Origin: an uncultured Alphaproteobacteria bacterium
Lineage (GTDB): Bacteria > Pseudomonadota > Alphaproteobacteria > Rs-D84 > CACZYB01
DNA length: 32,000 bases
Assembly: GCA_934246625.1 (NCBI GenBank)
Contig: CAKQHZ010000002.1
Span: 150,001 to 182,000 of the forward strand
Reading direction: 5' to 3'
Part shown: in pieces, positions 3,559 to 20,136 of the stretch
Layout of the letters: every line of letters starts with the position of its first letter
Position numbering within the stretch: position 1 is the first letter of the stretch
The notes under the pieces: generated by a model
Databases searched by the model: none
The model's input: only the letters and a program-made list of their open reading frames with translations
What the model was told of the DNA's origin: nothing
Program-made: the position numbers and the translations under genes

Positions 3559-3635
3559 TGGAGCACCCAAGAGGATTTAAACCTCTGACCTTTGGTTCCG
3601 GAAACCAATGCTCTGTTCAACTGAGCTATGGGTGC
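3559..3635 (-). tRNA. tRNA-Arg (anticodon CCG), encoded CCA
   Basis: The reverse complement folds as a cloverleaf: GCACCCA/TGGGTGC acceptor, anticodon stem TTGGT/ACCAA, loop TTCCGGA, T arm AGAGG-TTTAAAT-CCTCT. Confidence 0.9.
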
Positions 3636-3907: not shown

Positions 3908-4449
3908 ATTTCACTAAGGTGGTTTAAGATAATTTGTTTTGTTTGTTCTGGTGAAAGGTTTGAATTATCTATTTCCAATTTGTTTTTATTTTTTATTTCA
4001 ATCATATCATATTTGTAGACTTGTTTTGCAATGTCGGTATTTGTTAATTTCATTTTTTTTGCACGTTCTTCGTTCACAACTCGTGAAAGCAAAGTTTTTT
4101 CGTTTGGTTTAAGTATTACAGGAACATAAGTATGATTGATGTCCTTTGCAAATTTTGTTATAAGTTTATAAAATTCTTTATCATCTTTGGAATTTGTAAG
4201 AAAGTTTGTGAAAATAAGGTCATCTTTTATGTCAAGTTTTGTAAAATATTCAAATGCAACTTCGTATAATTTATTTATGTATTTGTCCTTGAATGCAGGA
4301 AGGGTTGTTGACAAGTCAGTTAAACAGAAAAGGACATTGTTTATTGTGTGATTATCAAAAATTTTGAAATTTCCGTCCTTTGCAATTTCGTTTGCAATAG
4401 TTAATTTTCCAGCTGCAGGGTATCCAATAAGATGTGTTATAAATTTCAT
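3892..4449 (-). CDS. P-loop NTPase / AAA_33-like kinase-fold protein
   Basis: N-terminal 'LIGYPAAGKLT' is Walker-A-like, with GKL instead of GK[ST]. It overlaps the downstream yggU-like gene by 16 nt, suggesting an operon. Confidence 0.55.
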   Translation of the reverse strand: MKFITHLIGYPAAGKLTIANEIAKDGNFKIFDNHTINNVLFCLTDLSTTLPAFKDKYINKLYEVAFEYFTKLDIKDDLIFTNFLTNSKDDKEFYKLITKFAKDINHTYVPVILKPNEKTLLSRVVNEERAKKMKLTNTDIAKQVYKYDMIEIKNKNKLEIDNSNLSPEQTKQIILNHLSEICQKG

Positions 4450-4460
4450 TTTTTAACCTT

Positions 4461-5204
4461 TCAATATTGAGCTTTTTCAAAATAAAGACCGCAAGCAGGG
4501 GCGGTTGGACCAGCAACTTTTCGGTCCTTTGCATTAAGTATTTTTATAAAATCTTCCTCTGTAAGTTTATGACGACCGACCATTTCAAGTGTGCCGACAA
4601 TATTTCTTACCTGATGATGAAGAAAGGATTTTGCATTTACCTTTATTTCTATTAAATCGTTATATCTTTCTACACTTATTTTGTCAAGTGTTTTGATAGG
4701 GGATTTCGCTTGACATTCAGAGGCACGAAACGATGAAAAATCGTGTTTGCCGACAAGGTTTTGTGCTACTTTGTCCATAAAATCAACGTCCAATGGGTGA
4801 TATACCCACCATACACGATTTTTTTCAATAATGGGGCGTGATGGACGATTTAGGATTTTGTAAATGTAATATCTTTTTTTGCATGAAAATCTTGCGTGGA
4901 AATCATCATCTACTTTTTCAACATTAAGTATGGTTATATCTTCGTTTGCAGATTGAAGATGAAAATTTGTTGCCATTAAAATTTTGTATGGGTCGTATTC
5001 CTTTGAAAGTTCTATGTGTGCGGACATTGCGATTGCGTGAACGCCAGCGTCTGTGCGGCCTGCAGAATAGCACTCTGTTTTTTCACCACAAAATTTGAAT
5101 ATGGCGGTTTCTATTGCCTGTTGTATAGATGGGCTGTCGTCTTGGATTTGCCAACCAGAATATTTTGTTCCGATATATTCTATTTCAAGTTTGTATTTTG
5201 CCAT
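4461..5204 (-). CDS. truA: tRNA pseudouridine(38-40) synthase TruA
   Basis: 'YIGTKYSGWQIQ', the catalytic 'GRTDAGVHA', and 'FLHHQVRNIVG'. Confidence 0.95.
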   Translation of the reverse strand: MAKYKLEIEYIGTKYSGWQIQDDSPSIQQAIETAIFKFCGEKTECYSAGRTDAGVHAIAMSAHIELSKEYDPYKILMATNFHLQSANEDITILNVEKVDDDFHARFSCKKRYYIYKILNRPSRPIIEKNRVWWVYHPLDVDFMDKVAQNLVGKHDFSSFRASECQAKSPIKTLDKISVERYNDLIEIKVNAKSFLHHQVRNIVGTLEMVGRHKLTEEDFIKILNAKDRKVAGPTAPACGLYFEKAQY

Positions 5205-6116
5205 TTATTTTAAAACTTCGCCTACTGTAAATTTATATCCGTTTGTAAAATCCTTTGTTGTAAGTGGTTTGCCACCAGATTTTTGAAGTTCTTCTATTTT
5301 AATAACTTCACCATTTTGGCATGCAATTTTTAAATCAGGAGTTAAGATTGTCCCCGCTGGTTTATCGGTAGTTTCGTTTTGAATAGTTGTTTTTAATACC
5401 TTTATTTGCATATCGTTGTGTATAAAAAATGCCTTTGGTGCAGGCATAAGTCCACGAACTAAATTATGAATAACTTGTGCTGGATTGTTCCAGTTTAGTT
5501 TTGCTTCTTCCTTTGTTAATTTAGGGGCAAGTGTGAATACTCCTTCTTGTTTTTGTGGAAGAATGCTATCCTTGTTTTCAATATAATCAAGTATCATTTC
5601 ACCACCAAGAATTGACATTTTTTCTTCTAATTCTCCATAAGTGATTTCATTTGTGATAGGGAGAACTTCTTTTAATAACATATCGCCTGTATCCATACCT
5701 GCGTCCATTTGCATAATGGTGATACCTGCAACTTTGTCGCCATTTAATATTGCACGTTGAATTGGGTTTGCACCACGAAGTTTTGGAAGAATTGATGCGT
5801 GAATATTTATGCAACCCATTGGAGGAATATCAAGAACGGATTGTGGTAAAATAATTCCGTATGCGGCAACAACAATCATATCAGGGTGAAGTTTTTTAAG
5901 TGTGTCAATATCCTCTTGATTTTTAAAATTTTTTGGTGTGAAAACAGAAATGTTATGTTCTTCGGCTGTGATGTGTATAGGTGATTTTGTTAAAATCATT
6001 TTGCGACCTTGAGGTTTTGGTGCCTTTGTATATACACCTATCACATTATATTTTTTTATTAGGTTTAATAATGCTGGAACTGCGAAATCAGGAGTTCCCA
6101 TAAAAACTATATTCAC
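5205..6116 (-). CDS. fmt: methionyl-tRNA formyltransferase
   Basis: 'IVFMGTPDFAVP', 'INIHASILPKLRGANPIQRAI', 'ITIMQMDAGMDTGD'. It abuts truA and lies downstream of def. Confidence 0.95.
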   Translation of the reverse strand: MNIVFMGTPDFAVPALLNLIKKYNVIGVYTKAPKPQGRKMILTKSPIHITAEEHNISVFTPKNFKNQEDIDTLKKLHPDMIVVAAYGIILPQSVLDIPPMGCINIHASILPKLRGANPIQRAILNGDKVAGITIMQMDAGMDTGDMLLKEVLPITNEITYGELEEKMSILGGEMILDYIENKDSILPQKQEGVFTLAPKLTKEEAKLNWNNPAQVIHNLVRGLMPAPKAFFIHNDMQIKVLKTTIQNETTDKPAGTILTPDLKIACQNGEVIKIEELQKSGGKPLTTKDFTNGYKFTVGEVLK

Positions 6117-6118
6117 TT

Positions 6119-6670
6119 TTATTTTCCAAATTTTATTTTTCTTAGTTTGTTTATTATAAGTTTCTTTTTTAATGAACTTAGGTAATCAATAAAAAGTTTT
6201 CCATTAAGGTGGTCAATTTCGTGTTCTATACAACGGGCAAGAAGTCCGTCTGCTTCCAATTCTATATTTTTGCCATTTTCATCTGTGTATGAAATTTTTA
6301 CAGATTTTGGTCTTTCAATTTCATAATAAATTGTTGGCACAGAAAGACAACCTTCTTCCTTTACACATAATTCCTTTGATACAGAAAGTATTTTTGGATT
6401 GATAAGTTTTAAATATCTTTTTGATGGAAGAGTTTGACCTTCTTCTTTTGCAATAGTTTCAGCATCAATTACAATTATTTTTTTAAGACAGCCAACCTGT
6501 GGTCCAGCAAGTCCAATTCCATCGAATTGTCCCATTATTTTAATCATATCATCAAATAAATCCAATAAATCATCAGTAATTTGGTCAACTGGAGTTGTTG
6601 GTTTTCGAAGAATTGGGTCTGGTTCAATACATAATGTAATCGGTTTTTTATTCTTTTTTAAGTCTTCCAT
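6119..6670 (-). CDS. def: peptide deformylase
   Basis: All three PDF motifs are present: 'GIGLAGPQVG', 'EGCLSVP', 'HEIDHLNG'. Confidence 0.95.
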   Translation of the reverse strand: MEDLKKNKKPITLCIEPDPILRKPTTPVDQITDDLLDLFDDMIKIMGQFDGIGLAGPQVGCLKKIIVIDAETIAKEEGQTLPSKRYLKLINPKILSVSKELCVKEEGCLSVPTIYYEIERPKSVKISYTDENGKNIELEADGLLARCIEHEIDHLNGKLFIDYLSSLKKKLIINKLRKIKFGK

Positions 6671-7962: not shown

Positions 7963-8622
7963 ATGTTTAAAAAATTTTTAATTTTGTTTTTTGTGATTGG
8001 GTTTGGTTTTGTCTTTGATGCTTTTTCACAAACAAGGACTAGAGCCCATTATGGACGTGGAAATGGTTTTACTTTTTCTCAAGATGCAAAGGAGCGAATT
8101 AGACTTGGTTGTCCAAATGTTTTAAGACGTGCAAATCAATTTTCAAAGGATATGAAAACAAAGGGTGCATCAAATATTGAATCTGAAATCATTTATATGT
8201 GTTCAGTTAATTCTATTGAACTTGAAAAGGGGGATTTGGGTCCATGGAAAAAATTTGTTCATGCCCTTGAAAAGGTATTTAAGCAATTCAGAAATCTTAT
8301 TTATCTTGCCGCTATATTTATGCTTCTTTGGATTATCGTAAAGGCTATGTATGAAGGTGATATGAAGTGGATGCATATTGGTATGATGGTTTTGGGTATT
8401 ACTATGCTTTCGTTTGCAGAGGTGTTTTTGGATATTGCAACCAATAGAGTTACCATAGATGATATTCGAAATAGTGAAATTTATGTTGATTGTCGTGAAC
8501 CTGATAGAGGTCTTTATATTTGTTCTGTGGATACAGATGGTGCGGTTGATAAAGAATCTGTGTATTTATATGATGTGAATCACAAGGCAACTAAAACCAA
8601 AGTCTTTAAAGGACTTTATTAG
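7963..8622 (+). CDS. hypothetical secreted/membrane protein (signal peptide plus two TM helices, several Cys)
   Basis: AGGAGA SD. Signal-like N-terminus 'FLILFFVIGFGFVFDAFSQ'. Two adjacent hydrophobic helices (LIYLAAIFMLLWIIV; IGMMVLGITMLSFAEVFL). No family recognised. Confidence 0.6.
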   Translation: MFKKFLILFFVIGFGFVFDAFSQTRTRAHYGRGNGFTFSQDAKERIRLGCPNVLRRANQFSKDMKTKGASNIESEIIYMCSVNSIELEKGDLGPWKKFVHALEKVFKQFRNLIYLAAIFMLLWIIVKAMYEGDMKWMHIGMMVLGITMLSFAEVFLDIATNRVTIDDIRNSEIYVDCREPDRGLYICSVDTDGAVDKESVYLYDVNHKATKTKVFKGLY

Positions 8623-9168: not shown

Positions 9169-9197
9169 TTGATATTATTCTTAAAATGAGATATTAT
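9169..9197 (+). promoter_or_regulatory. sigma70-like promoter TTGATA-17-TATTAT for cassette 1
   Basis: Hexamers at 9169-9174 and 9192-9197, 35 nt upstream of the SD-served ATG at 9232. Confidence 0.45.
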
Positions 9198-9244
9198 ACA
9201 TATAAGTTTAACCAATGAGAAAGGAAAAAATATGTTAGACAAAT

Positions 9245-10738
9245 TTGACAAAACGGGGGGGGGTAAAACAGGTAAATAATTCTGAAACTTCTCTTAAAAT
9301 CAATTCTGGTTTTAAATCAATAAAATTCGGTTTGGTTAGTTTTTTAACCATTGCAACCTTGATAGGTGCAACATCTGTAAATGCAAGTCCTCGTAGAAAT
9401 AGAAGACAAGGTAAAACAACCCTTAACCAAAATAATACAAGAATTAATGCTGGTATGACTTCTGGTTATAGTAATAAATTTTTTACAAATACTCTTATTA
9501 CATTTATGGAACAAAGACAAATTGATGTTGATACAGTTATCAATGCAGGAACAACAACAGGAATAGCTTTATTAAAGGCAGATGTTGTTGGTAATAAACC
9601 AGCATATAAACTTTGTTTCCCTTGCTCTTCTATTGTTATGAAAGGTAATGTTGAAGAAGCAACGAGTATGACTGGTGAAAAATGTTATACTTTAAAGGCT
9701 GGTGATTTTAAATCTCAAATAGTTATTCCTGCAAATGCACAAAAAACTTGTGGAGATTTATCTTCAAAACGTTTAACAATTCGTTCAAATGATGAATTTG
9801 AAACAATCGCGGATAGTGCAAATTTGGCAATAGTTCAAAATGATTTTGGTGTGGATTATGATAATATTGCTCTTTCTGAAGATACTGAAACAAAGGAACT
9901 TTCTCAAGTTTTTCTTGATGCAAAAGCAAAGGCAGTAGAGGCATGTGTAAATTCTGATTTTTCAAAATCTTATGATACTGTAAAGGGTTTATTTATTGGT
10001 TCAACTGTTGCTTCTGGTGTTGCAACTGGAACTGGTGCTGCGGGAACAGCTATTAGTGCTCTTAATATAAATAAGGGACAAAGTGCAACAGTAGATTATG
10101 ACAAACTTAAAAAACTTGTTGATGTAGATGTATCTGTGAAAGATTATTTTAAATGTGAAACAAAGAAAGCTCTTAACACTATTGTTGATACAGATGAAAC
10201 TTGTGATATTACTTCTGGAACAACAGATAGTAGTGTAAAAACTGTATTTGCTAAGGCTTTGGCAATGAAAGATTTAAACAATGAACTTTTTTCTGAAAAA
10301 TTTATGTCTTTTGTTGATAAATATAAAACTGAAACAGATGAGACTAAAAAAACAGAATATGCAAATGAATTAAAGTCAAGAAAATCTTCTTTGATTAAGG
10401 ATTTTGAAAATGTTGATGATTTAGTTGCAAATGTAGTTTCTGCACAAAAATCACTTGAAACAAAACTTTCTTTTGTGGAAGAAAATCTTATTGATAAAAT
10501 TGAAAGTGATAAAAATTTAAAGAAAAAGTATGCAATGACAGGAGCAAATATTGCTAATGTGGCTTTGTCTGGTGCAACATCTGTGTCTGGTGTAGCTACT
10601 TCTGTGATGGGATTTAGTGCTGTTGGTGAAATTGATAAACTTATCAATCGTGTAAAAGAATGTAAATCTGCAGCGTCAAAAATGTATGATGCAGGTCTTG
10701 CTCTTGAAGCTCAATTACAAGAATTAAAAGGAGAATAA
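9245..10738 (+). CDS. large secreted Cys-framework protein, paralog A (currently out of frame with its probable ATG at 9232)
   Basis: Signal peptide 'FGLVSFLTIATLIGATSVNA'. Collinear with 11266..12261 at 'SGYSNKFF/SGYNDKIF', 'YKLCFPC/YKLCIPC', 'KCYTL/SCYSL', 'EACVNS/EACTSS', 'EIDKLINRVKECK/QLDKLVSSLDKCK'. Two Gly/Ala/Ser/Thr-rich hydrophobic segments. The TTG at 9245 has no SD. Confidence 0.8.
   Translation: MTKRGGVKQVNNSETSLKINSGFKSIKFGLVSFLTIATLIGATSVNASPRRNRRQGKTTLNQNNTRINAGMTSGYSNKFFTNTLITFMEQRQIDVDTVINAGTTTGIALLKADVVGNKPAYKLCFPCSSIVMKGNVEEATSMTGEKCYTLKAGDFKSQIVIPANAQKTCGDLSSKRLTIRSNDEFETIADSANLAIVQNDFGVDYDNIALSEDTETKELSQVFLDAKAKAVEACVNSDFSKSYDTVKGLFIGSTVASGVATGTGAAGTAISALNINKGQSATVDYDKLKKLVDVDVSVKDYFKCETKKALNTIVDTDETCDITSGTTDSSVKTVFAKALAMKDLNNELFSEKFMSFVDKYKTETDETKKTEYANELKSRKSSLIKDFENVDDLVANVVSAQKSLETKLSFVEENLIDKIESDKNLKKKYAMTGANIANVALSGATSVSGVATSVMGFSAVGEIDKLINRVKECKSAASKMYDAGLALEAQLQELKGE
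9255..9263 (+). repeat. homopolymeric G9 tract (candidate slipped-strand phase-variation switch)
   Basis: Nine consecutive G, the longest G/C run I can see in this AT-rich window. It lies between ATG 9232 (AAGGA SD, 6-nt spacing) and the 497-codon ORF, which sits in a different frame. Confidence 0.85.
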
Positions 10739-10739
10739 T

Positions 10740-11141
10740 ATGAAAATTTCCAAAATAGTTTTAATGGCTGTTGCAATGTTTTCTTTGACTGCAAATGCAA
10801 ATACTAAATTTACAGTTAATGATAAAGATGCAGCAGAATATTGTAAAAATTTAGATGTTAATAAAATTGAAAAACTTAAAAGTTTGGCTACAACCTCTGC
10901 TATTGGTGGAGTTGTTGGTGCTGCTTCTGGTGCATCTGGAGTTGCGACTTCTTTGATAAGTGGTTCAAAACTTTCTGATGAAAAAGGTAAAAAAGGACTT
11001 GATATTGCAACCACAATTACCTCTGGTTTAGGGGCAACAGCTGGAATTATGTCTGTGTCAACCAGTGGTGCTGGGCTTGCTGAAATTGAAGGTATCTTTG
11101 ATACAATCAATAAATGTAAGGAAAAAATGTCAAAAATTTAA
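10740..11141 (+). CDS. small secreted Gly/Ala/Ser-rich hairpin protein, paralog C (partner of A)
   Basis: AAAGGAGA SD; the start is 2 nt after the stop of A. Signal peptide 'VLMAVAMFSLTANA'. 'AIGGVVGAASGASGVATSLISG' - charged loop - 'ITSGLGATAGIMSVSTSGAGLAEIEGIFDTINKCK'. Paralogous to 12273..12704. Confidence 0.8.
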   Translation: MKISKIVLMAVAMFSLTANANTKFTVNDKDAAEYCKNLDVNKIEKLKSLATTSAIGGVVGAASGASGVATSLISGSKLSDEKGKKGLDIATTITSGLGATAGIMSVSTSGAGLAEIEGIFDTINKCKEKMSKI

Positions 11142-11163
11142 TTATTATTTCGTCTTTTTTATA

Positions 11164-11200
11164 AAAACAAACTCTTCGTTTTGAGGGGTTTGTTTTTTTT
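11164..11200 (+). terminator. rho-independent terminator (imperfect stem)
   Basis: AAAACAAACTC...GAGGGGTTTGTTTT hairpin with a small bulge, followed by a T run. Confidence 0.55.
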
Positions 11201-11201
11201 G

Positions 11202-11230
11202 TTGTTTATGTCTAAATTTTATGATATAAT
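11202..11230 (+). promoter_or_regulatory. sigma70-like promoter TTGTTT-17-TATAAT for cassette 2
   Basis: Hexamers at 11202-11207 and 11225-11230, 36 nt upstream of ATG 11266. Confidence 0.45.
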
Positions 11231-11265
11231 ACAGATAATTTTGTATAAAAAGGAAAGGAAATAAT

Positions 11266-12261
11266 ATGAAACAAAAAGTTAGTTTAGTTTCTTTGGCTTT
11301 GCTTCTTGCCTTTACATCTGTTGATGCAGGTGCAAGGGTTTCTCGTTCAAGACATGCTTCTTCAAAGAAAATTAGTTCAGGTTTGGTCTCTGGATATAAT
11401 GATAAAATTTTCGTTAATCCATCAATCACATTGATTGAAAAGCGTTCTATTGAACTTGCTCCACTTATCAATGTTGGTGAAAATGGTATCGGAAAAATTA
11501 CAAGAAAAGCAGATGGCACAGAGCCATATTATAAACTTTGCATACCTTGTGCAAATATATTCTTAGAAGCAACTTTGGCTGATGGAAGTTTTAAATCTTT
11601 GACTGCTAATGGAAGTTGTTATTCTTTGGAACCTGGTGCAAAATATACTATTGCAACAGCTGATGGTGCAATTAACACTTGCGGTTCAAAGTTAAGAATG
11701 ACAATCAATGATATGAGAAGTGCTGCAAAAACAGAAGTTGATAGTGTTGTTTTAAATCTTCTTCCAAACAGCAGTGCTTATGATTACACAAATATTCAGC
11801 TTGGTCAAGATACTTTGATGACAGATTTGATTACTGATTATAATGATGCAAAACGTGAAGCGATTGAGGCTTGCACTTCTAGCAACATTATGGAAACATT
11901 GGATATTATCAAAGGTTGGATGATTGCTTCTGTTTCAGGAAGTGGTGTTGCAACTGTAACAGGTGCTACTGATACTGCTTTTCAAACTATTGAAACTGTG
12001 AAAGGTGATACTAAAGTAGGAAATGGTGTTCTTCAAGGGACATTGTCAGCAGTAAGTGCAACAGGTAATACTTTGTCAATGACTGGTGCAATCGTTTCTG
12101 CAGTGCAACTTGATAAACTTGTTTCAAGTTTGGATAAGTGTAAAAAAGCTGCTCAAAAAATGAACAATGCTGGTGTTGCTTTGGAATATGGATTGGCTGA
12201 CTTGATGTCTGCTGATGAAAGCAATGTTAAAACATCAACAGAAACAAAAACTGAAGAATAA
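11266..12261 (+). CDS. large secreted Cys-framework protein, paralog B
   Basis: GGAAAGGA SD. Signal peptide 'LVSLALLLAFTSVDA'. Same conserved Cys positions and motifs as paralog A, but lacks A's central ~150-160 aa charged insert. Confidence 0.85.
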   Translation: MKQKVSLVSLALLLAFTSVDAGARVSRSRHASSKKISSGLVSGYNDKIFVNPSITLIEKRSIELAPLINVGENGIGKITRKADGTEPYYKLCIPCANIFLEATLADGSFKSLTANGSCYSLEPGAKYTIATADGAINTCGSKLRMTINDMRSAAKTEVDSVVLNLLPNSSAYDYTNIQLGQDTLMTDLITDYNDAKREAIEACTSSNIMETLDIIKGWMIASVSGSGVATVTGATDTAFQTIETVKGDTKVGNGVLQGTLSAVSATGNTLSMTGAIVSAVQLDKLVSSLDKCKKAAQKMNNAGVALEYGLADLMSADESNVKTSTETKTEE

Positions 12262-12272
12262 AGGAGTTTAAT

Positions 12273-12704
12273 ATGAAAAAATTATTTATACTTATGTTTT
12301 CATTATTATCTGTTGCTGTAAAAGCAGAAAAGCCAGTTTTCCCAAGATATACTGAAAATGAAAAGGCAACAGTTAATCATTGTAGAGCAATTAATACTTC
12401 AAAAATAGAAGAAATCAAAGGAAGAATGATTGCAGTTGGTGTTGTAAGTGGTATTAGTGCTGGTGCAAATACTTATTCTGCTGTTGTTAACTATGCTAAA
12501 TTCGATAAGGCAGGAGCTGATGCAGATGAGAAGAAAAAAGCCTCAGCTACGGCTCACGGAATTGCATCAAATATTGCAACTGGTGTGGCTGCGGCTGGTT
12601 CTATTACTTCTACTGGTTTGACTGGTGCAAGTTTGGCAGATTTGGAAAACATTATTGATAATGTTAAAAAATGTCAAAGCGGTTTAAACTCACTTAGCTA
12701 TTAG
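12273..12704 (+). CDS. small secreted Gly/Ala/Ser-rich hairpin protein, paralog D (partner of B)
   Basis: AAGGAG SD. Signal peptide 'LFILMFSLLSVAVKA'. 'NHCRAINTSKIEEIK', 'AVGVVSGISAGAN', 'IATGVAAAGSITSTGLTGASLADLENIIDNVKKCQ' are collinear with 10740..11141. Confidence 0.85.
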   Translation: MKKLFILMFSLLSVAVKAEKPVFPRYTENEKATVNHCRAINTSKIEEIKGRMIAVGVVSGISAGANTYSAVVNYAKFDKAGADADEKKKASATAHGIASNIATGVAAAGSITSTGLTGASLADLENIIDNVKKCQSGLNSLSY

Positions 12705-12740
12705 AATATAGATAGAAACTGTTTCTAATTACATATTTTG

Positions 12741-12762
12741 CCTCCCAATTGGGAGGTTTTTT
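12741..12762 (+). terminator. rho-independent terminator
   Basis: Perfect CCTCCC-AATT-GGGAGG hairpin followed by T6. Confidence 0.75.
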
Positions 12763-12824
12763 ATATTTCCTTTTACATTTTTGCTTTTCGTTGTTATACT
12801 TTATTGAAAACAAGGGAGATAAAT

Positions 12825-13292
12825 ATGCCAAAAGTAAAAGCAAAGATTTTTTATTTACCAAATTATGATATGAATGCGTGGGGACCAATGAAGTATGTTC
12901 ATGAAAGTGATACTGGATTTGATGTTCGTGCATGTGTAAGTGAAGATGTTGTGCTTGCCCCTATGGAAAGAAAGATTATCCCGCTGGGGTTTAAGATTGC
13001 TCCTTCGTTGGGATATGGTTTTGAATTAAGGGCACGAAGTGGTAATGCGATTAAACTTGGGCTTTGCCCTGTGAATGGTGTCGGAACCATTGATAATGAA
13101 TACCGTGGTGAAGTTGGTATTATATTGGTGAATCTTTCATCTGAACCAGTGGTTATTGAACGTGGTATGCGTGTAGGTCAGGGTGTTGTTGAACCAGTTT
13201 ATCAATTTGATTTTGAAGAAGTTGATTGTGAGGAAAAACTTGGCATTTCACAAAGAGGTGAATGTGGGTTTGGTTCTACTGGTAAAAAATAA
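12825..13292 (+). CDS. dut: dUTP diphosphatase
   Basis: 'SDTGFDVRA', 'ARSGNAIKLG', 'GTIDNEYRGEVGIIL', 'GMRVGQGV', 'RGECGFGSTG'. ATG 12825 has a GGGAGA SD. The ORF-track start 12738 would read through the upstream terminator. Confidence 0.92.
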   Translation: MPKVKAKIFYLPNYDMNAWGPMKYVHESDTGFDVRACVSEDVVLAPMERKIIPLGFKIAPSLGYGFELRARSGNAIKLGLCPVNGVGTIDNEYRGEVGIILVNLSSEPVVIERGMRVGQGVVEPVYQFDFEEVDCEEKLGISQRGECGFGSTGKK

Positions 13293-13363: not shown

Positions 13364-14647
13364 ATGCAAGTAGTTGAACAAATTGAAGAACATAGCTTTG
13401 GTGTAAGTTTGATTCTTTCATATAAACCTGAGTCTGGTATTGGGCAAAGGATTGCTCGTTCTTTGGATAATAAGTTTGGTTGGAAAAAAAATGTGGTTTC
13501 AAAACAACTTAATTTTGATAAGCCTATCGTTCTTTGTTTTGGTGGAGCAGGGATTGATGATGATAAATCCGCAAATGGTATTGCAAAGATTGTTCAGGGT
13601 ATGCTTGGAAGAAACAATATTTATGATAATGATGTTCAACTTTTTTCTGTTGTGTATCCAAAGGATTTGGAACGACTTGGCGATGAAAGAGCTAAATTCC
13701 TTCGTGGAGAAATTAAGAAAAAAATCGATTACATAGGACGAATTTATGAAACTATATTTATCCCAATGTTGCGATTTATTATTGAAAATGGTGATGATAA
13801 ATCTTCACTTGATATAGTCAGAAAGCAATTTCGTAATATTACAATATTTTCACATTGTCATGGAAGTTTTGTTGCATGTGAGCTTATAAATTATTTAAAG
13901 GAAGGTTTTGAAATCCTTTGTAAAAAAAATACTATTTCAAAAGAAAATGCGGATAGCTTGATTGGTGAAATTACCAATATAATGCTTAGCCCTCGTGATG
14001 GGGTGCAATATAGCTATGGTGCACTTAATCTTGGTTTTACTATGGCGACGGATAATCTTGAAGGTGGTATAAAGGAACCTCAACGTAAGGGATTTAATGT
14101 TGGTATTTCGAATTTTGCGGATAAACTTTTGGCTGGAAAAATTAAAGGGTGTGAAAGTTTTGGATTTAAAGATGGTGCCTTTTTTAATTTTTGGGATACG
14201 GACAGATTTGGTGCCGATATTAAATTTATTGATGATATGGACGACTCTTTTTGTGGAAATGTTTCTGAAATGATTTATTCCAATATTTTTATGGGTAATC
14301 ATTTCCATCTTTTTGAAAATTATTGTTCTTTGAATGGTGGTTTTGATGAAGATGGTGTTGGTGCAATTCTTAAAAATGAAAAGGGTAAAAATTTTACTTA
14401 TATGATTGCGAGAGCTTTGCAAAATGCGGTTTCTCTTTCTTTGGCAGGTAAAAAACGCACCATTGAAAATGTTGTTTCAAATGCTACTCCGATTATTTAT
14501 AATAAAGGAGATAAAGAAAGTAATCTTGATTTTTTTGATGTGAAGTTTGATGGTTCACTTGAAACTTTGTTTGCAAATTATAACAAGATGATTGGTGGGT
14601 CAAAAACATCTTTGACTTTATCTGAAATTTCACAAAATCAAAGATAG
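13364..14647 (+). CDS. hypothetical protein, possible alpha/beta-hydrolase-like fold with Cys/Ser nucleophile elbow
   Basis: AAGGAG SD and a TTGACA-16-TAAAAT promoter upstream. No signal peptide. 'PIVLCFGGAG' and 'ITIFSHCHGSF' resemble an oxyanion strand plus a small-x-Nuc-x-small elbow. No family recognised. Confidence 0.6.
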   Translation: MQVVEQIEEHSFGVSLILSYKPESGIGQRIARSLDNKFGWKKNVVSKQLNFDKPIVLCFGGAGIDDDKSANGIAKIVQGMLGRNNIYDNDVQLFSVVYPKDLERLGDERAKFLRGEIKKKIDYIGRIYETIFIPMLRFIIENGDDKSSLDIVRKQFRNITIFSHCHGSFVACELINYLKEGFEILCKKNTISKENADSLIGEITNIMLSPRDGVQYSYGALNLGFTMATDNLEGGIKEPQRKGFNVGISNFADKLLAGKIKGCESFGFKDGAFFNFWDTDRFGADIKFIDDMDDSFCGNVSEMIYSNIFMGNHFHLFENYCSLNGGFDEDGVGAILKNEKGKNFTYMIARALQNAVSLSLAGKKRTIENVVSNATPIIYNKGDKESNLDFFDVKFDGSLETLFANYNKMIGGSKTSLTLSEISQNQR

Positions 14648-15298: not shown

Positions 15299-15375
15299 GG
15301 GTGATTAGCTCAGTTGGCTAGAGCATCTCGTTTACACCGAGGAGGTCTGGGGTTCGAGTCCCTAATCACCCACCA
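15299..15375 (+). tRNA. tRNA-Val (anticodon UAC), encoded CCA
   Basis: GGGTGAT/ATCACCC acceptor, D arm GCTC-AGTTGGCTA-GAGC, anticodon stem TCTCG/CGAGG with loop TTTACAC, T arm TGGGG-TTCGAGT-CCCTA. Confidence 0.92.
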
Positions 15376-19542: not shown

Positions 19543-20136
19543 ATGATTTATGGATATATTCGAGTTTCAACAGAACAGCAAAATACCGAAAATCAATATC
19601 ACGAAATTTTAACCTTTGCAAAACATCAAAATTTAATTATCAATAAATGGATTGATGAAGTTATTTCATCAAAAAAATCACTTAAAGAAAGAAAACTTGG
19701 CAACCTTTTAAAACATCTTAAAAAGGGTGATATTTTGATTGCATCAGAGCTTTCTCGACTTGGTAGAAATCTTTTGGAAGTCATGGGAATTTTACAAAGT
19801 TGTTTAGAAAAAGATTGTCAAATTTGGACCATAAAAGAAAACTATCGTTTGGGTTTGGATATTCAATCAAAGGTGCTTGCTTTTGCATTTTCTTTGGCTG
19901 CAGAAATTGAAAGACAACTTATTTCTCAACGAACAAAAGAGTCGTTGAAACGGTTAAAAGATGAAGGCAAACATCTTGGTCGTCCAATAGGTTTTGCGCA
20001 TAAAAAACTTGATTCAAAATGTGATGAAATAAAAGAACTTCTTTCAAAAAATATTTCCAAAGCCGAAATTGCACGACTTATGAATTGTTCGTGGATTACT
20101 TTACATCGATATATACAAAAAAGGAATAAAAGATAA
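19543..20136 (+). CDS. serine recombinase, small DNA-invertase type (Mpi-like)
   Basis: 'MIYGYIRVSTEQQ' contains the catalytic Ser. Also 'ASELSRLGRN', 'NYRLGLDIQSKVLAFAFSLAAEIERQLISQRTKESL' and a C-terminal HTH 'ISKAEIARLMNCSWITLHRYI'. At 197 aa, its length and central motifs match my recollection of Bacteroides Mpi-family invertases. Confidence 0.85.
   Translation: MIYGYIRVSTEQQNTENQYHEILTFAKHQNLIINKWIDEVISSKKSLKERKLGNLLKHLKKGDILIASELSRLGRNLLEVMGILQSCLEKDCQIWTIKENYRLGLDIQSKVLAFAFSLAAEIERQLISQRTKESLKRLKDEGKHLGRPIGFAHKKLDSKCDEIKELLSKNISKAEIARLMNCSWITLHRYIQKRNKR

Follow-up and report, generated by a model that had tools for sequence, protein, structure and literature searches.

What do two consecutive gene pairs, each encoding one large and one small secreted protein, do in an uncultured alphaproteobacterium, and how did the two pairs come to differ? 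The question is raised by a 32,000-nucleotide stretch of DNA (hereafter the window; assembly GCA_934246625.1, contig CAKQHZ010000002.1, positions 150,001 to 182,000 of the forward strand), in which genes A and B form pair 1 and genes C and D form pair 2, A and C coding for the large and B and D for the small proteins (Table 1). We propose that the four proteins represent a new family, the members of which are confined to host-associated Alphaproteobacteria that have not been cultured. Furthermore, we favor, at about an even chance, the hypothesis that the pairs encode two versions of one heteromeric structure, which is exported by the Sec pathway, exposed in the envelope or secreted, and varied both by changes in sequence and by switching of the reading frame.

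The large proteins A and C share 36% identity over 244 amino acids (E 6e-39) and an additional C-terminal block (E 2e-07) in collinear order, and the small proteins B and D share 26% identity (E 3e-14). As judged from these alignments, the paralogy of A with C and of B with D is far beyond chance, which bears out the tandemly duplicated two-gene cassette reported in a preliminary description of the locus, and the collinear motifs and conserved cysteine positions quoted there for the large proteins are all present. The preliminary description had also recognized two operon-like pairs of the same layout with promoter-like and terminator-like signals (for pair 2 the promoter signal is an extended -10 element only), cleavable signal peptides on all four proteins, which are of the Sec type with AxA-type sites, and long segments rich in Gly, Ala, Ser and Thr (hereafter GAST segments), which are real (48-76% of these four residues and 0-3 charged residues). 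All of these held on closer analysis. What it had missed is the homology of the small proteins to one half of the large proteins, the fusion of large-type and small-type parts in some relatives, and the derived status of pair A/B, each of which is considered below.

The homology was revealed by a hidden Markov model (HMM) of a shared module, built from B and D only and refined once on the family. The model matched B at residues 26-133 (E 7e-30) and D at residues 28-143 (E 2.5e-37), but also C at residues 194-301 (E 1.5e-12) and A at residues 225-348 (E 1.6e-10) and 362-482 (E 1.9e-24), and it matched no other open reading frame (ORF) in the window. Likewise, an hhalign comparison of the large and small family profiles gave a probability of 94.9%. 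These profile comparisons show homology between the small proteins and the C-terminal half of the large ones. The module is about 110 amino acids long, and its first half consists of an invariant cysteine, a short amphipathic stretch ending in a conserved I-K and an uncharged GAST segment (aS.v.SG.G.A), followed in the second half by a loop rich in Lys, Glu and Asp, a second GAST segment (lNiA..i.SG...S) and an amphipathic stretch ending in a second invariant cysteine. These two cysteines are invariant across 30 modules, while the length of the loop ranges across the family from about 10 residues in C to about 150 residues in A, where an insert of about 150 amino acids with two extra cysteines interrupts the module.

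The two parts can also be joined in a single chain. In three relatives (P0023, P0025 and P0027), the N-terminal domain and the module are fused to a second, B-like module, and in P0025 this C-terminal module shares 34% identity with B (E 1e-10). Judged by their sequences, these fused relatives are the best available evidence that the large and small proteins work together. P0023 was identified in the same metagenome-assembled genome (MAG) as a separate large and small pair, and genomes can therefore hold several loci of the family. More distant members retain just the module, in one or two copies, behind varied N-terminal regions. Two-module relatives in more distant MAGs (GC content 37-41%) were also observed in an interrupted form, with a stop codon in frame within the module 1 loop in one (L024, positions 5530-6498) and a frameshift in the other (L025, positions 4044-4975), where the gene slightly overlaps a downstream gene for a protein with YkuD/Tlde1 L,D-transpeptidase-like domains. 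These interruptions could represent decay, sequencing error or another switch.

What might the module look like? All four proteins begin with a basic n-region, followed by a hydrophobic core and an AxA-type site (VNA/S, ANA/N, VDA/G and VKA/E, the slash marking the cut). No cysteine is present at position +1, nor in or beside any of the four signal peptides, so that none of the proteins is a lipoprotein. The cysteine counts are even throughout (8, 2, 6 and 2 in A, B, C and D), and six cysteines are invariant across nine large proteins. The large hydrophobic residues of the module are spaced i, i+4, i+8 with a helix-like periodicity peak near 110 degrees, and the module contains helices only in the AlphaFold model, which is of low confidence. 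Because of this helical prediction and periodicity, the cysteine at each end of the module, the even cysteine counts and the exported location, we infer that the module may fold as an antiparallel helical hairpin, the base of which would be closed by a disulfide between the two invariant cysteines. The large proteins add a cysteine-rich N-domain that is beta-rich in the model (residues 45-170 of C, 10-residue block pLDDT 53-86). Its likeness to Ig-like sandwiches is weak (Foldseek E ~6e-4, TM only ~0.2), and we describe it as a predicted beta-rich domain, nothing more specific.

The GAST segments had been taken to recall the glycine-zipper hairpins of pore-forming toxins and of some surface antigens. 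Glycine-zipper patterns are about two-fold enriched in the modules (100, as compared to 50 ± 7 in shuffled modules). The segments are nevertheless only moderately hydrophobic (Kyte-Doolittle 1.05-1.45) and their predicted insertion energy is unfavorable (+4.4 to +6 kcal/mol), and they are therefore expected to pass the Sec channel and not to stop in the inner membrane. One hypothesis is that the locus encodes a secreted binary alpha-helical pore-forming toxin or bacteriocin, of which the N-domain binds the target and the GAST segments insert, with a loop that varies through an arms race. Such a toxin could account for two adjacent paralogous genes that each encode a pair of uncharged, small-residue-rich segments of 20-30 residues, for a hydrophobicity too weak for retention by Sec, as expected of soluble-to-membrane proteins, for the zipper patterns at twice the shuffled level, and for the weak resemblance of the N-domain to Ig-like binding domains. 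Similarly, in the bi- and tripartite alpha-pore-forming toxins (YaxAB/XaxAB, AhlABC, Hbl/Nhe), neighboring genes encode related helical proteins, each with a hydrophobic hairpin. The modules examined here are only a third of that size, however, and they are encoded at a conserved chromosomal single-copy site.

Furthermore, sequence searches connected the proteins with none of the toxin or pore families, and specifically not with the ClyA superfamily in Pfam, NCBIfam or, with the family profiles A1, A2 and A3, among the sequences in PDB, and no fold was predicted with confidence. Neither an immunity gene nor an export system nor a lysis gene is linked in the loci examined, the genes are chromosomal and syntenic with a single pair kept across related MAGs, and the supposed insertion segments themselves vary. 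We consider a toxin improbable for these reasons, and the glycine-zipper pore of the preliminary description was not borne out, there being no match to a glycine-zipper or toxin family, only moderate hydrophobicity and models of low confidence. Runs of the type small-xxx-small are common to the modules of A-D, the N-terminus of VacA and the lipoproteins of the Gly-zipper_Omp, Rickettsia 17-kDa antigen and SlyB type. The models Gly-zipper_Omp, Gly-zipper_OmpA, Gly-zipper_YMGG and Rick_17kDa_Anti did not match A-D (E ≤ 1) or ten relatives (E ≤ 0.1), however, and A-D differ from the glycine-zipper lipoproteins in being non-lipoproteins, in having paired segments with a variable loop between them and invariant flanking cysteines, and in that their insertion into a membrane is predicted to be unfavorable.

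How widespread is the family? Searches of Pfam, NCBIfam, PHROGs and PADLOC with the four proteins and with ten distant relatives yielded no match above the noise, searches of PDB sequences with the three profiles returned no match, and literature searches yielded no relevant description. The label of an unrecognized family given earlier is thus appropriate, since profile searches of curated libraries assign A-D to no family. A word-indexed search of 5.8 billion clusters identified eight relatives of C and seven of D, and a full HMMER scan of 1.84 billion representative proteins with the large-family profile identified 49 relatives at E ≤ 0.001, while a scan of JGI metagenomes with profile A1 provided no additional loci. 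Every named relative is annotated as a "hypothetical protein" and comes from a MAG labeled Alphaproteobacteria, Rickettsiales or "bacterium." The neighbors of the relatives are unrelated housekeeping genes, and no secretion system was found in the flanks examined. We also considered an origin from a mobile element, which was rejected: tblastn searches against 50,697 phage and 72,556 plasmid records came back empty, and the locus is syntenic in chromosomal contigs.

The comparison with related genomes indicates how the second pair arose. Four related MAGs (L009-L012, from at least three other assemblies) carry a single large and small pair, which in L009, L010 and L011 is located at the same site, in the order rmuC, orf219, hup, pair, dut (in the flanks of L012 only dut was matched). 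Two pairs were identified only in the window and in 13 near-identical loci from other samples. The other large proteins are 40-53% identical to C, as compared to at most 33% to A, and A has no orthologue outside its own cluster at 90% identity. Pair A/B is therefore the derived, lineage-specific copy. Furthermore, the large protein evolves fast relative to its neighbors, with only 45-48% identity across the related MAGs, as compared to 98-99% for HU, 72-79% for RmuC and 60-74% for dUTPase.

Fast evolution is also evident among close strains. To quantify it, we relied on ratios of non-synonymous to synonymous substitution rates (dN/dS) between strains, because synonymous sites are saturated between paralogs at 26-36% identity. 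Strains with flanking genes 98.5-100% identical to those of the window show a 3% difference in C and D only. In the comparison with locus L003 of the same lineage, the dN/dS values of rmuC, orf219, A, B, dut and orf427 range from 0 to 0.25. For C, both dN and dS are 0.034, and 13 of the 15 amino-acid changes fall in two patches, namely the entry to the first GAST segment (residues 214-221) and the second GAST segment beside the loop (residues 255-291). For D, all 13 nucleotide changes are non-synonymous (dS 0), and the resulting 10 amino-acid changes are all located within 20 codons (residues 74-93). Across six D alleles, 24 of the 34 variable columns and all indels fall in residues 72-98.

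Since dS of C is no higher than that of its neighbors, selection on the patches is favored over the import of an old divergent allele. In another lineage (L001/L002), the proteins P0004 and P0005 are identical at 210 of 212 positions N-terminally and at only 53 of 151 positions (about 35%, with many indels) across the module, and this sharp mosaic boundary in the sequences suggests replacement of the allele by recombination. One locus (L018) combines a C of the L003 type with a D of the window type, and the C and D variants thus assort independently. A diversity-generating retroelement was considered as a source of the variation and rejected: a blastn comparison with the window turned up no further copy of the variable stretches of C and D (the best off-target match, 20 nt, had E 0.014), and none of the scanned window ORFs matched a reverse transcriptase.

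Pair 1 varies in a different manner. The only G or C run longer than five nucleotides in the 32-kb window (the next longest is 5) is a G9 tract in the first codons of gene A, where 0.006 runs of at least nine would be expected, an excess of about 180-fold. The good start codon of the gene is the ATG at 9232, located 6 nt after the AGGA sequence and followed by GAC AAA AC and then the tract, the total length of which sets the reading frame. A tract of eight opens a protein of 501 amino acids from this ATG. With nine, as in the window, the ATG frame ends after 15 codons and only the TTG at 9245, 19 nt from the ribosome-binding site, is in frame. With seven or ten, a stop lies just upstream and the remaining start is located inside the signal peptide.

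The forms recovered from other assemblies are G7, G9, G10, A+G9, T+G9 and T+G7, with totals of 7, 8, 9 and 10, and the commonest state is G9. Among the listed members of the gene A cluster at 90% identity, 497 amino acids are annotated in about 49 contigs, 468 in about 26, 496 in 7 and 501 (P0088) in 17. P0088 begins MLDKFDKTGGVKQ, exactly the predicted form of 501 amino acids that starts at the ATG, and five independent contigs of this protein read AAAAC-T-G7, a total of eight and in frame. One in-frame allele comes from a human-gut metagenome of the Hadza. All three frames thus occur among assemblies, while the body of the gene is 99.6-99.7% identical. T+G7 combines the open frame with a shorter uninterrupted run of G and is perhaps a steadier "on" form. 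A substitution of A or T for the leading G of the tract, as in A+G9, T+G9 and T+G7, was seen in L017 and L019 (at about position 700) and in L026-L030 (at about position 420).

A tract that is longer than expected by chance and differs in length between near-identical strains, with both in-frame and out-of-frame states, is the hallmark of contingency genes. Gene A resembles the poly-G/C contingency loci among the surface genes of Campylobacter, Neisseria, Haemophilus and Helicobacter in that the tract is located in the first codons of a gene for a secreted protein, that its strain-variable length sets the frame and that in-frame and out-of-frame forms coexist. In contrast to those loci, gene A belongs to a gut alphaproteobacterium that is uncultured, its product to an undescribed family, and its variation was seen between assemblies, while in the commonest state, G9, the one remaining start is a TTG in a poor position. 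The preliminary description had suggested a variable surface or host-interaction system with a phase switch on one copy. The phase switch is supported by the tract-length polymorphism in all three frames and the 501-residue form on 17 contigs, switching being a candidate process deduced from assembled consensus sequences. As for the variable system, the variable part stands, since the strain changes are concentrated in and around the module loop; the surface part is taken up below.

We also considered the possibility that the proteins are periplasmic, as housekeeping or structural proteins at the inner face of the envelope, in which case the disordered loop would be under relaxed constraint and the G tract an incidental hotspot. 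The default location in a diderm for a protein with a Sec signal peptide and neither a lipobox, a barrel nor a known surface anchor is the periplasm. The charged loops also have a disordered appearance, and the locus is situated amid housekeeping genes. Relaxed constraint alone, however, gives dN/dS values of at most 1 spread over the entire gene and not clustered, whereas every substitution in D is non-synonymous and dN of C is raised 10-30 fold at a dS similar to that of the neighbors. Nor does it explain why the identity of P0004 and P0005 falls abruptly from 99% to 35% at the module, or why a tract so far beyond chance should fall precisely in the interval that separates the ATG from the signal peptide and should exist in each of the three frames. 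A purely periplasmic role is in our opinion unlikely.

Yet another explanation is that A-D are accessory subunits of a type IV secretion system (T4SS) pilus or a similar machine, comparable to VirB5 and VirB2 and duplicated as in the Trw locus of Bartonella. Tandem duplication of pilus subunits is known in the alphaproteobacteria, the small proteins share the size and the two-segment layout of conjugative pilins, and a conserved gene two positions upstream, orf219 (7963-8622), has a weak match to TrbC/VirB2. That match is below the Pfam cut-off, however, and belongs to a different gene, separated from the pairs by hup with its own terminator. A-D themselves matched neither TrbC/VirB2 (PF04956) nor VirB5 nor any other T4SS model at E ≤ 1, B and D are without two strongly hydrophobic helices, the segments being far less hydrophobic than those of pilins stored in the membrane, and neither the window nor the flanks of the relatives yielded a T4SS gene. 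We judge this explanation to be very unlikely. None of the three alternatives, toxin, periplasmic protein or pilus subunit, has positive support from sequence or fold.

We therefore return to the hypothesis of an exposed heteromeric structure in two versions. Its building block would be the module of about 110 residues, folded as an antiparallel helical hairpin with a disulfide at the base. Each arm of the hairpin would be an uncharged GAST stretch with a single stripe of Ile, Val or Leu, and the loop between the arms would form the tip, which accommodates lengths between about 10 and about 150 residues. The small protein would then consist of one module and the large protein of a disulfide-bonded beta-rich N-domain with one module, and the modules of the two partners may pack together as they would within one chain of the fused relatives. 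On this hypothesis the loop region would face a selective agent on the outside, such as an antibody, a phage or a competitor. Pair 2, the ancestral version, would evade this agent by altering residues in and around the loop, while pair 1, a diverged extra version with a large loop insert, would be conserved in sequence and switched in frame whenever the G tract near the start of A undergoes slippage.

Several observations weigh against this hypothesis. The AlphaFold models are poor (mean pLDDT 51 and 56), and the hairpin, the disulfide and the heteromer are for that reason deductions. Placement at the cell surface is without support from experiment or from a confident model, and no secretion system, anchor motif or beta-barrel was found nearby. 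The strain-level dN/dS values rest on few substitutions, and the changes in both C and D relative to L003 are clustered multi-nucleotide substitutions, so that recombination or gene conversion could contribute to the signal. The variability also reaches into the GAST segments, which fits neither a hairpin with buried arms and an exposed tip nor a conserved membrane anchor. Finally, the tract lengths were obtained from short-read assemblies, in which homopolymer errors are possible, yet the form T+G7 recurs in five independent contigs.

A more far-reaching hypothesis, which we regard as doubtful, is that the module is a disulfide-stapled helical hairpin, rich in small residues, that serves as a device for surface display in a diderm. 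Being weakly hydrophobic, it would cross the inner membrane, oligomerize via its glycine-zipper faces and span or become embedded in the outer membrane. What is presented on the outside would then be the tip of the hairpin or, where the tip has received an insert as in gene A, an entire domain. This would make a helical, though speculative, alternative to display by a beta-barrel, coupled to antigenic and phase variation.

Superficially, the locus also resembles other systems. The PE/PPE and EsxA/EsxB (WXG100) proteins of mycobacteria are likewise encoded by adjacent small and large genes, pair through helix-turn-helix units of about 100 residues, as the modules of A-D would, and are duplicated and variable. 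This is an analogy of layout only: no PE, PPE or WXG100 family was identified in the Pfam scan, ESAT-6 gave only E 4.3 against the module profile, and the mycobacterial proteins carry type VII export signals, whereas A-D have Sec signal peptides and paired cysteines. The helical variable antigens VlsE, OspC and Vsp of Borrelia and VSG of the trypanosomes are similar in that a conserved helical scaffold would carry strain-variable loops, with the variability at one end. Those antigens are lipid- or GPI-anchored, however, and vary by recombination with silent cassettes, and neither an anchor nor a donor cassette was found here.

A contingency locus combined with a hypervariable exposed protein is a well-known kind of system, whereas the family, the module and its fused and split forms were present in no library searched. 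The low-GC uncultured gut Alphaproteobacteria are almost unstudied, and for such bacteria the locus represents a first candidate for a structure that faces the host or phages and whose signature can be read from populations: one pair diversifies the loop of the module, and the other carries a G tract, the length of which sets the frame. If it is true that the module is a helical device for display in the outer membrane or at the surface, it would represent a new principle in the surface biology of diderms. Even otherwise, the locus is a small and clean system, open to experiment, in which phase variation and sequence variation are combined in a bacterium other than the classical pathogens.

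The coordinates of the features are listed in Table 1. The spacing between the genes of a pair is 1 nt for A and B and 11 nt for C and D, with an AGGAG-like Shine-Dalgarno sequence ahead of each downstream gene. No pair of -35 and -10 elements was listed by the promoter scan for pair 2, which lacks a good -35. Eight terminator-like sites were seen in the region, as compared to 1.9 expected.

Table 1. Positions of the two gene pairs and of the associated signals and variable regions in the 32,000-nucleotide window.
Feature	Position	Strand	Remark
Promoter-like site of pair 1, TTGATA-17-TATTAT	9169-9197	+	Consensus scan, 10 of 12 positions; consensus match only
Shine-Dalgarno AGGA (9222-9225) and ATG (9232) of gene A	9222-9234	+	Read from the sequence; ATG out of frame in the window
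Gene A, large subunit of pair 1	9245-10738	+	497 aa from TTG 9245; from the ORF list
Poly-G tract G9, codons 8-11 of gene A; candidate translational phase switch	9255-9263	+	Run-length count
Gene B, small subunit of pair 1	10740-11141	+	133 aa; signal peptide and one module
Terminator-like hairpin closing pair 1	11163-11197	+	16-pair stem, then a T run
Extended -10, TGaTATAAT, upstream of pair 2	11222-11230	+	Perfect match, read directly
Gene C, large subunit of pair 2; ancestral-type copy	11266-12261	+	331 aa
Strain-variable patches of gene C, residues 214-221 and 255-291	11905-12138	+	Comparison with L003
Gene D, small subunit of pair 2	12273-12704	+	143 aa; signal peptide and one module
Hypervariable module loop of gene D, residues 74-93	12492-12551	+	Comparison with L003
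Terminator-like hairpin closing pair 2	12740-12757	+	GC-rich GCCTCCCAATTGGGAGGT, then a T run

The two pairs are flanked by housekeeping genes, with def, rmuC, a gene for an unknown membrane protein and hup (HU) before them and dut, kdsB, kdsA, tatC, gyrA, lolA and ftsK after them. The GC content of the window is about 31%. The host is identified as an alphaproteobacterium by a gene for MipZ and as a diderm by LolA, KdsA/B and TatC. The dUTPase ORF (12738-13292, + strand) as mechanically called begins at a TTG at 12738, within the terminator of pair 2; its true start is almost certainly the ATG at 12825, which gives the 155-aa product called in all related loci.

The product of orf219 (+ strand, 219 amino acids) has, besides a signal peptide and a soluble stretch containing cysteine, two helices of strong hydrophobicity. 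Synteny is preserved in the related MAGs, at 72-77% identity, and the sub-threshold match to PF04956 has E 4e-4 and 20.9 bits, as compared to a cut-off of 27.9; no relative was found in PDB. Downstream of dut, orf427 (13364-14647, + strand) encodes 427 amino acids, has no signal peptide and gave no match in Pfam, NCBIfam, PHROGs, PADLOC or PDB. It follows dut in the lineage of the window (L003-L007) and is absent from the related MAG L001.

Two tRNA genes, tRNA-Arg(CCG) at 3559-3635 (- strand) and tRNA-Val(TAC) at 15299-15375 (+ strand), were identified in the window, in which no other Rfam family reached its gathering score. The start of the window contains, at 9-392, 385-1281 and 1359-2000 (all on the + strand), the C-terminal part of a phage portal protein (head-tail connector, E 7e-26), followed by two ORFs without a match in Pfam, and a serine resolvase with an HTH_7 domain is encoded at 19543-20136 (+ strand). 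The portal fragment, the two ORFs that follow it and the resolvase are possible remnants of a prophage or mobile element.

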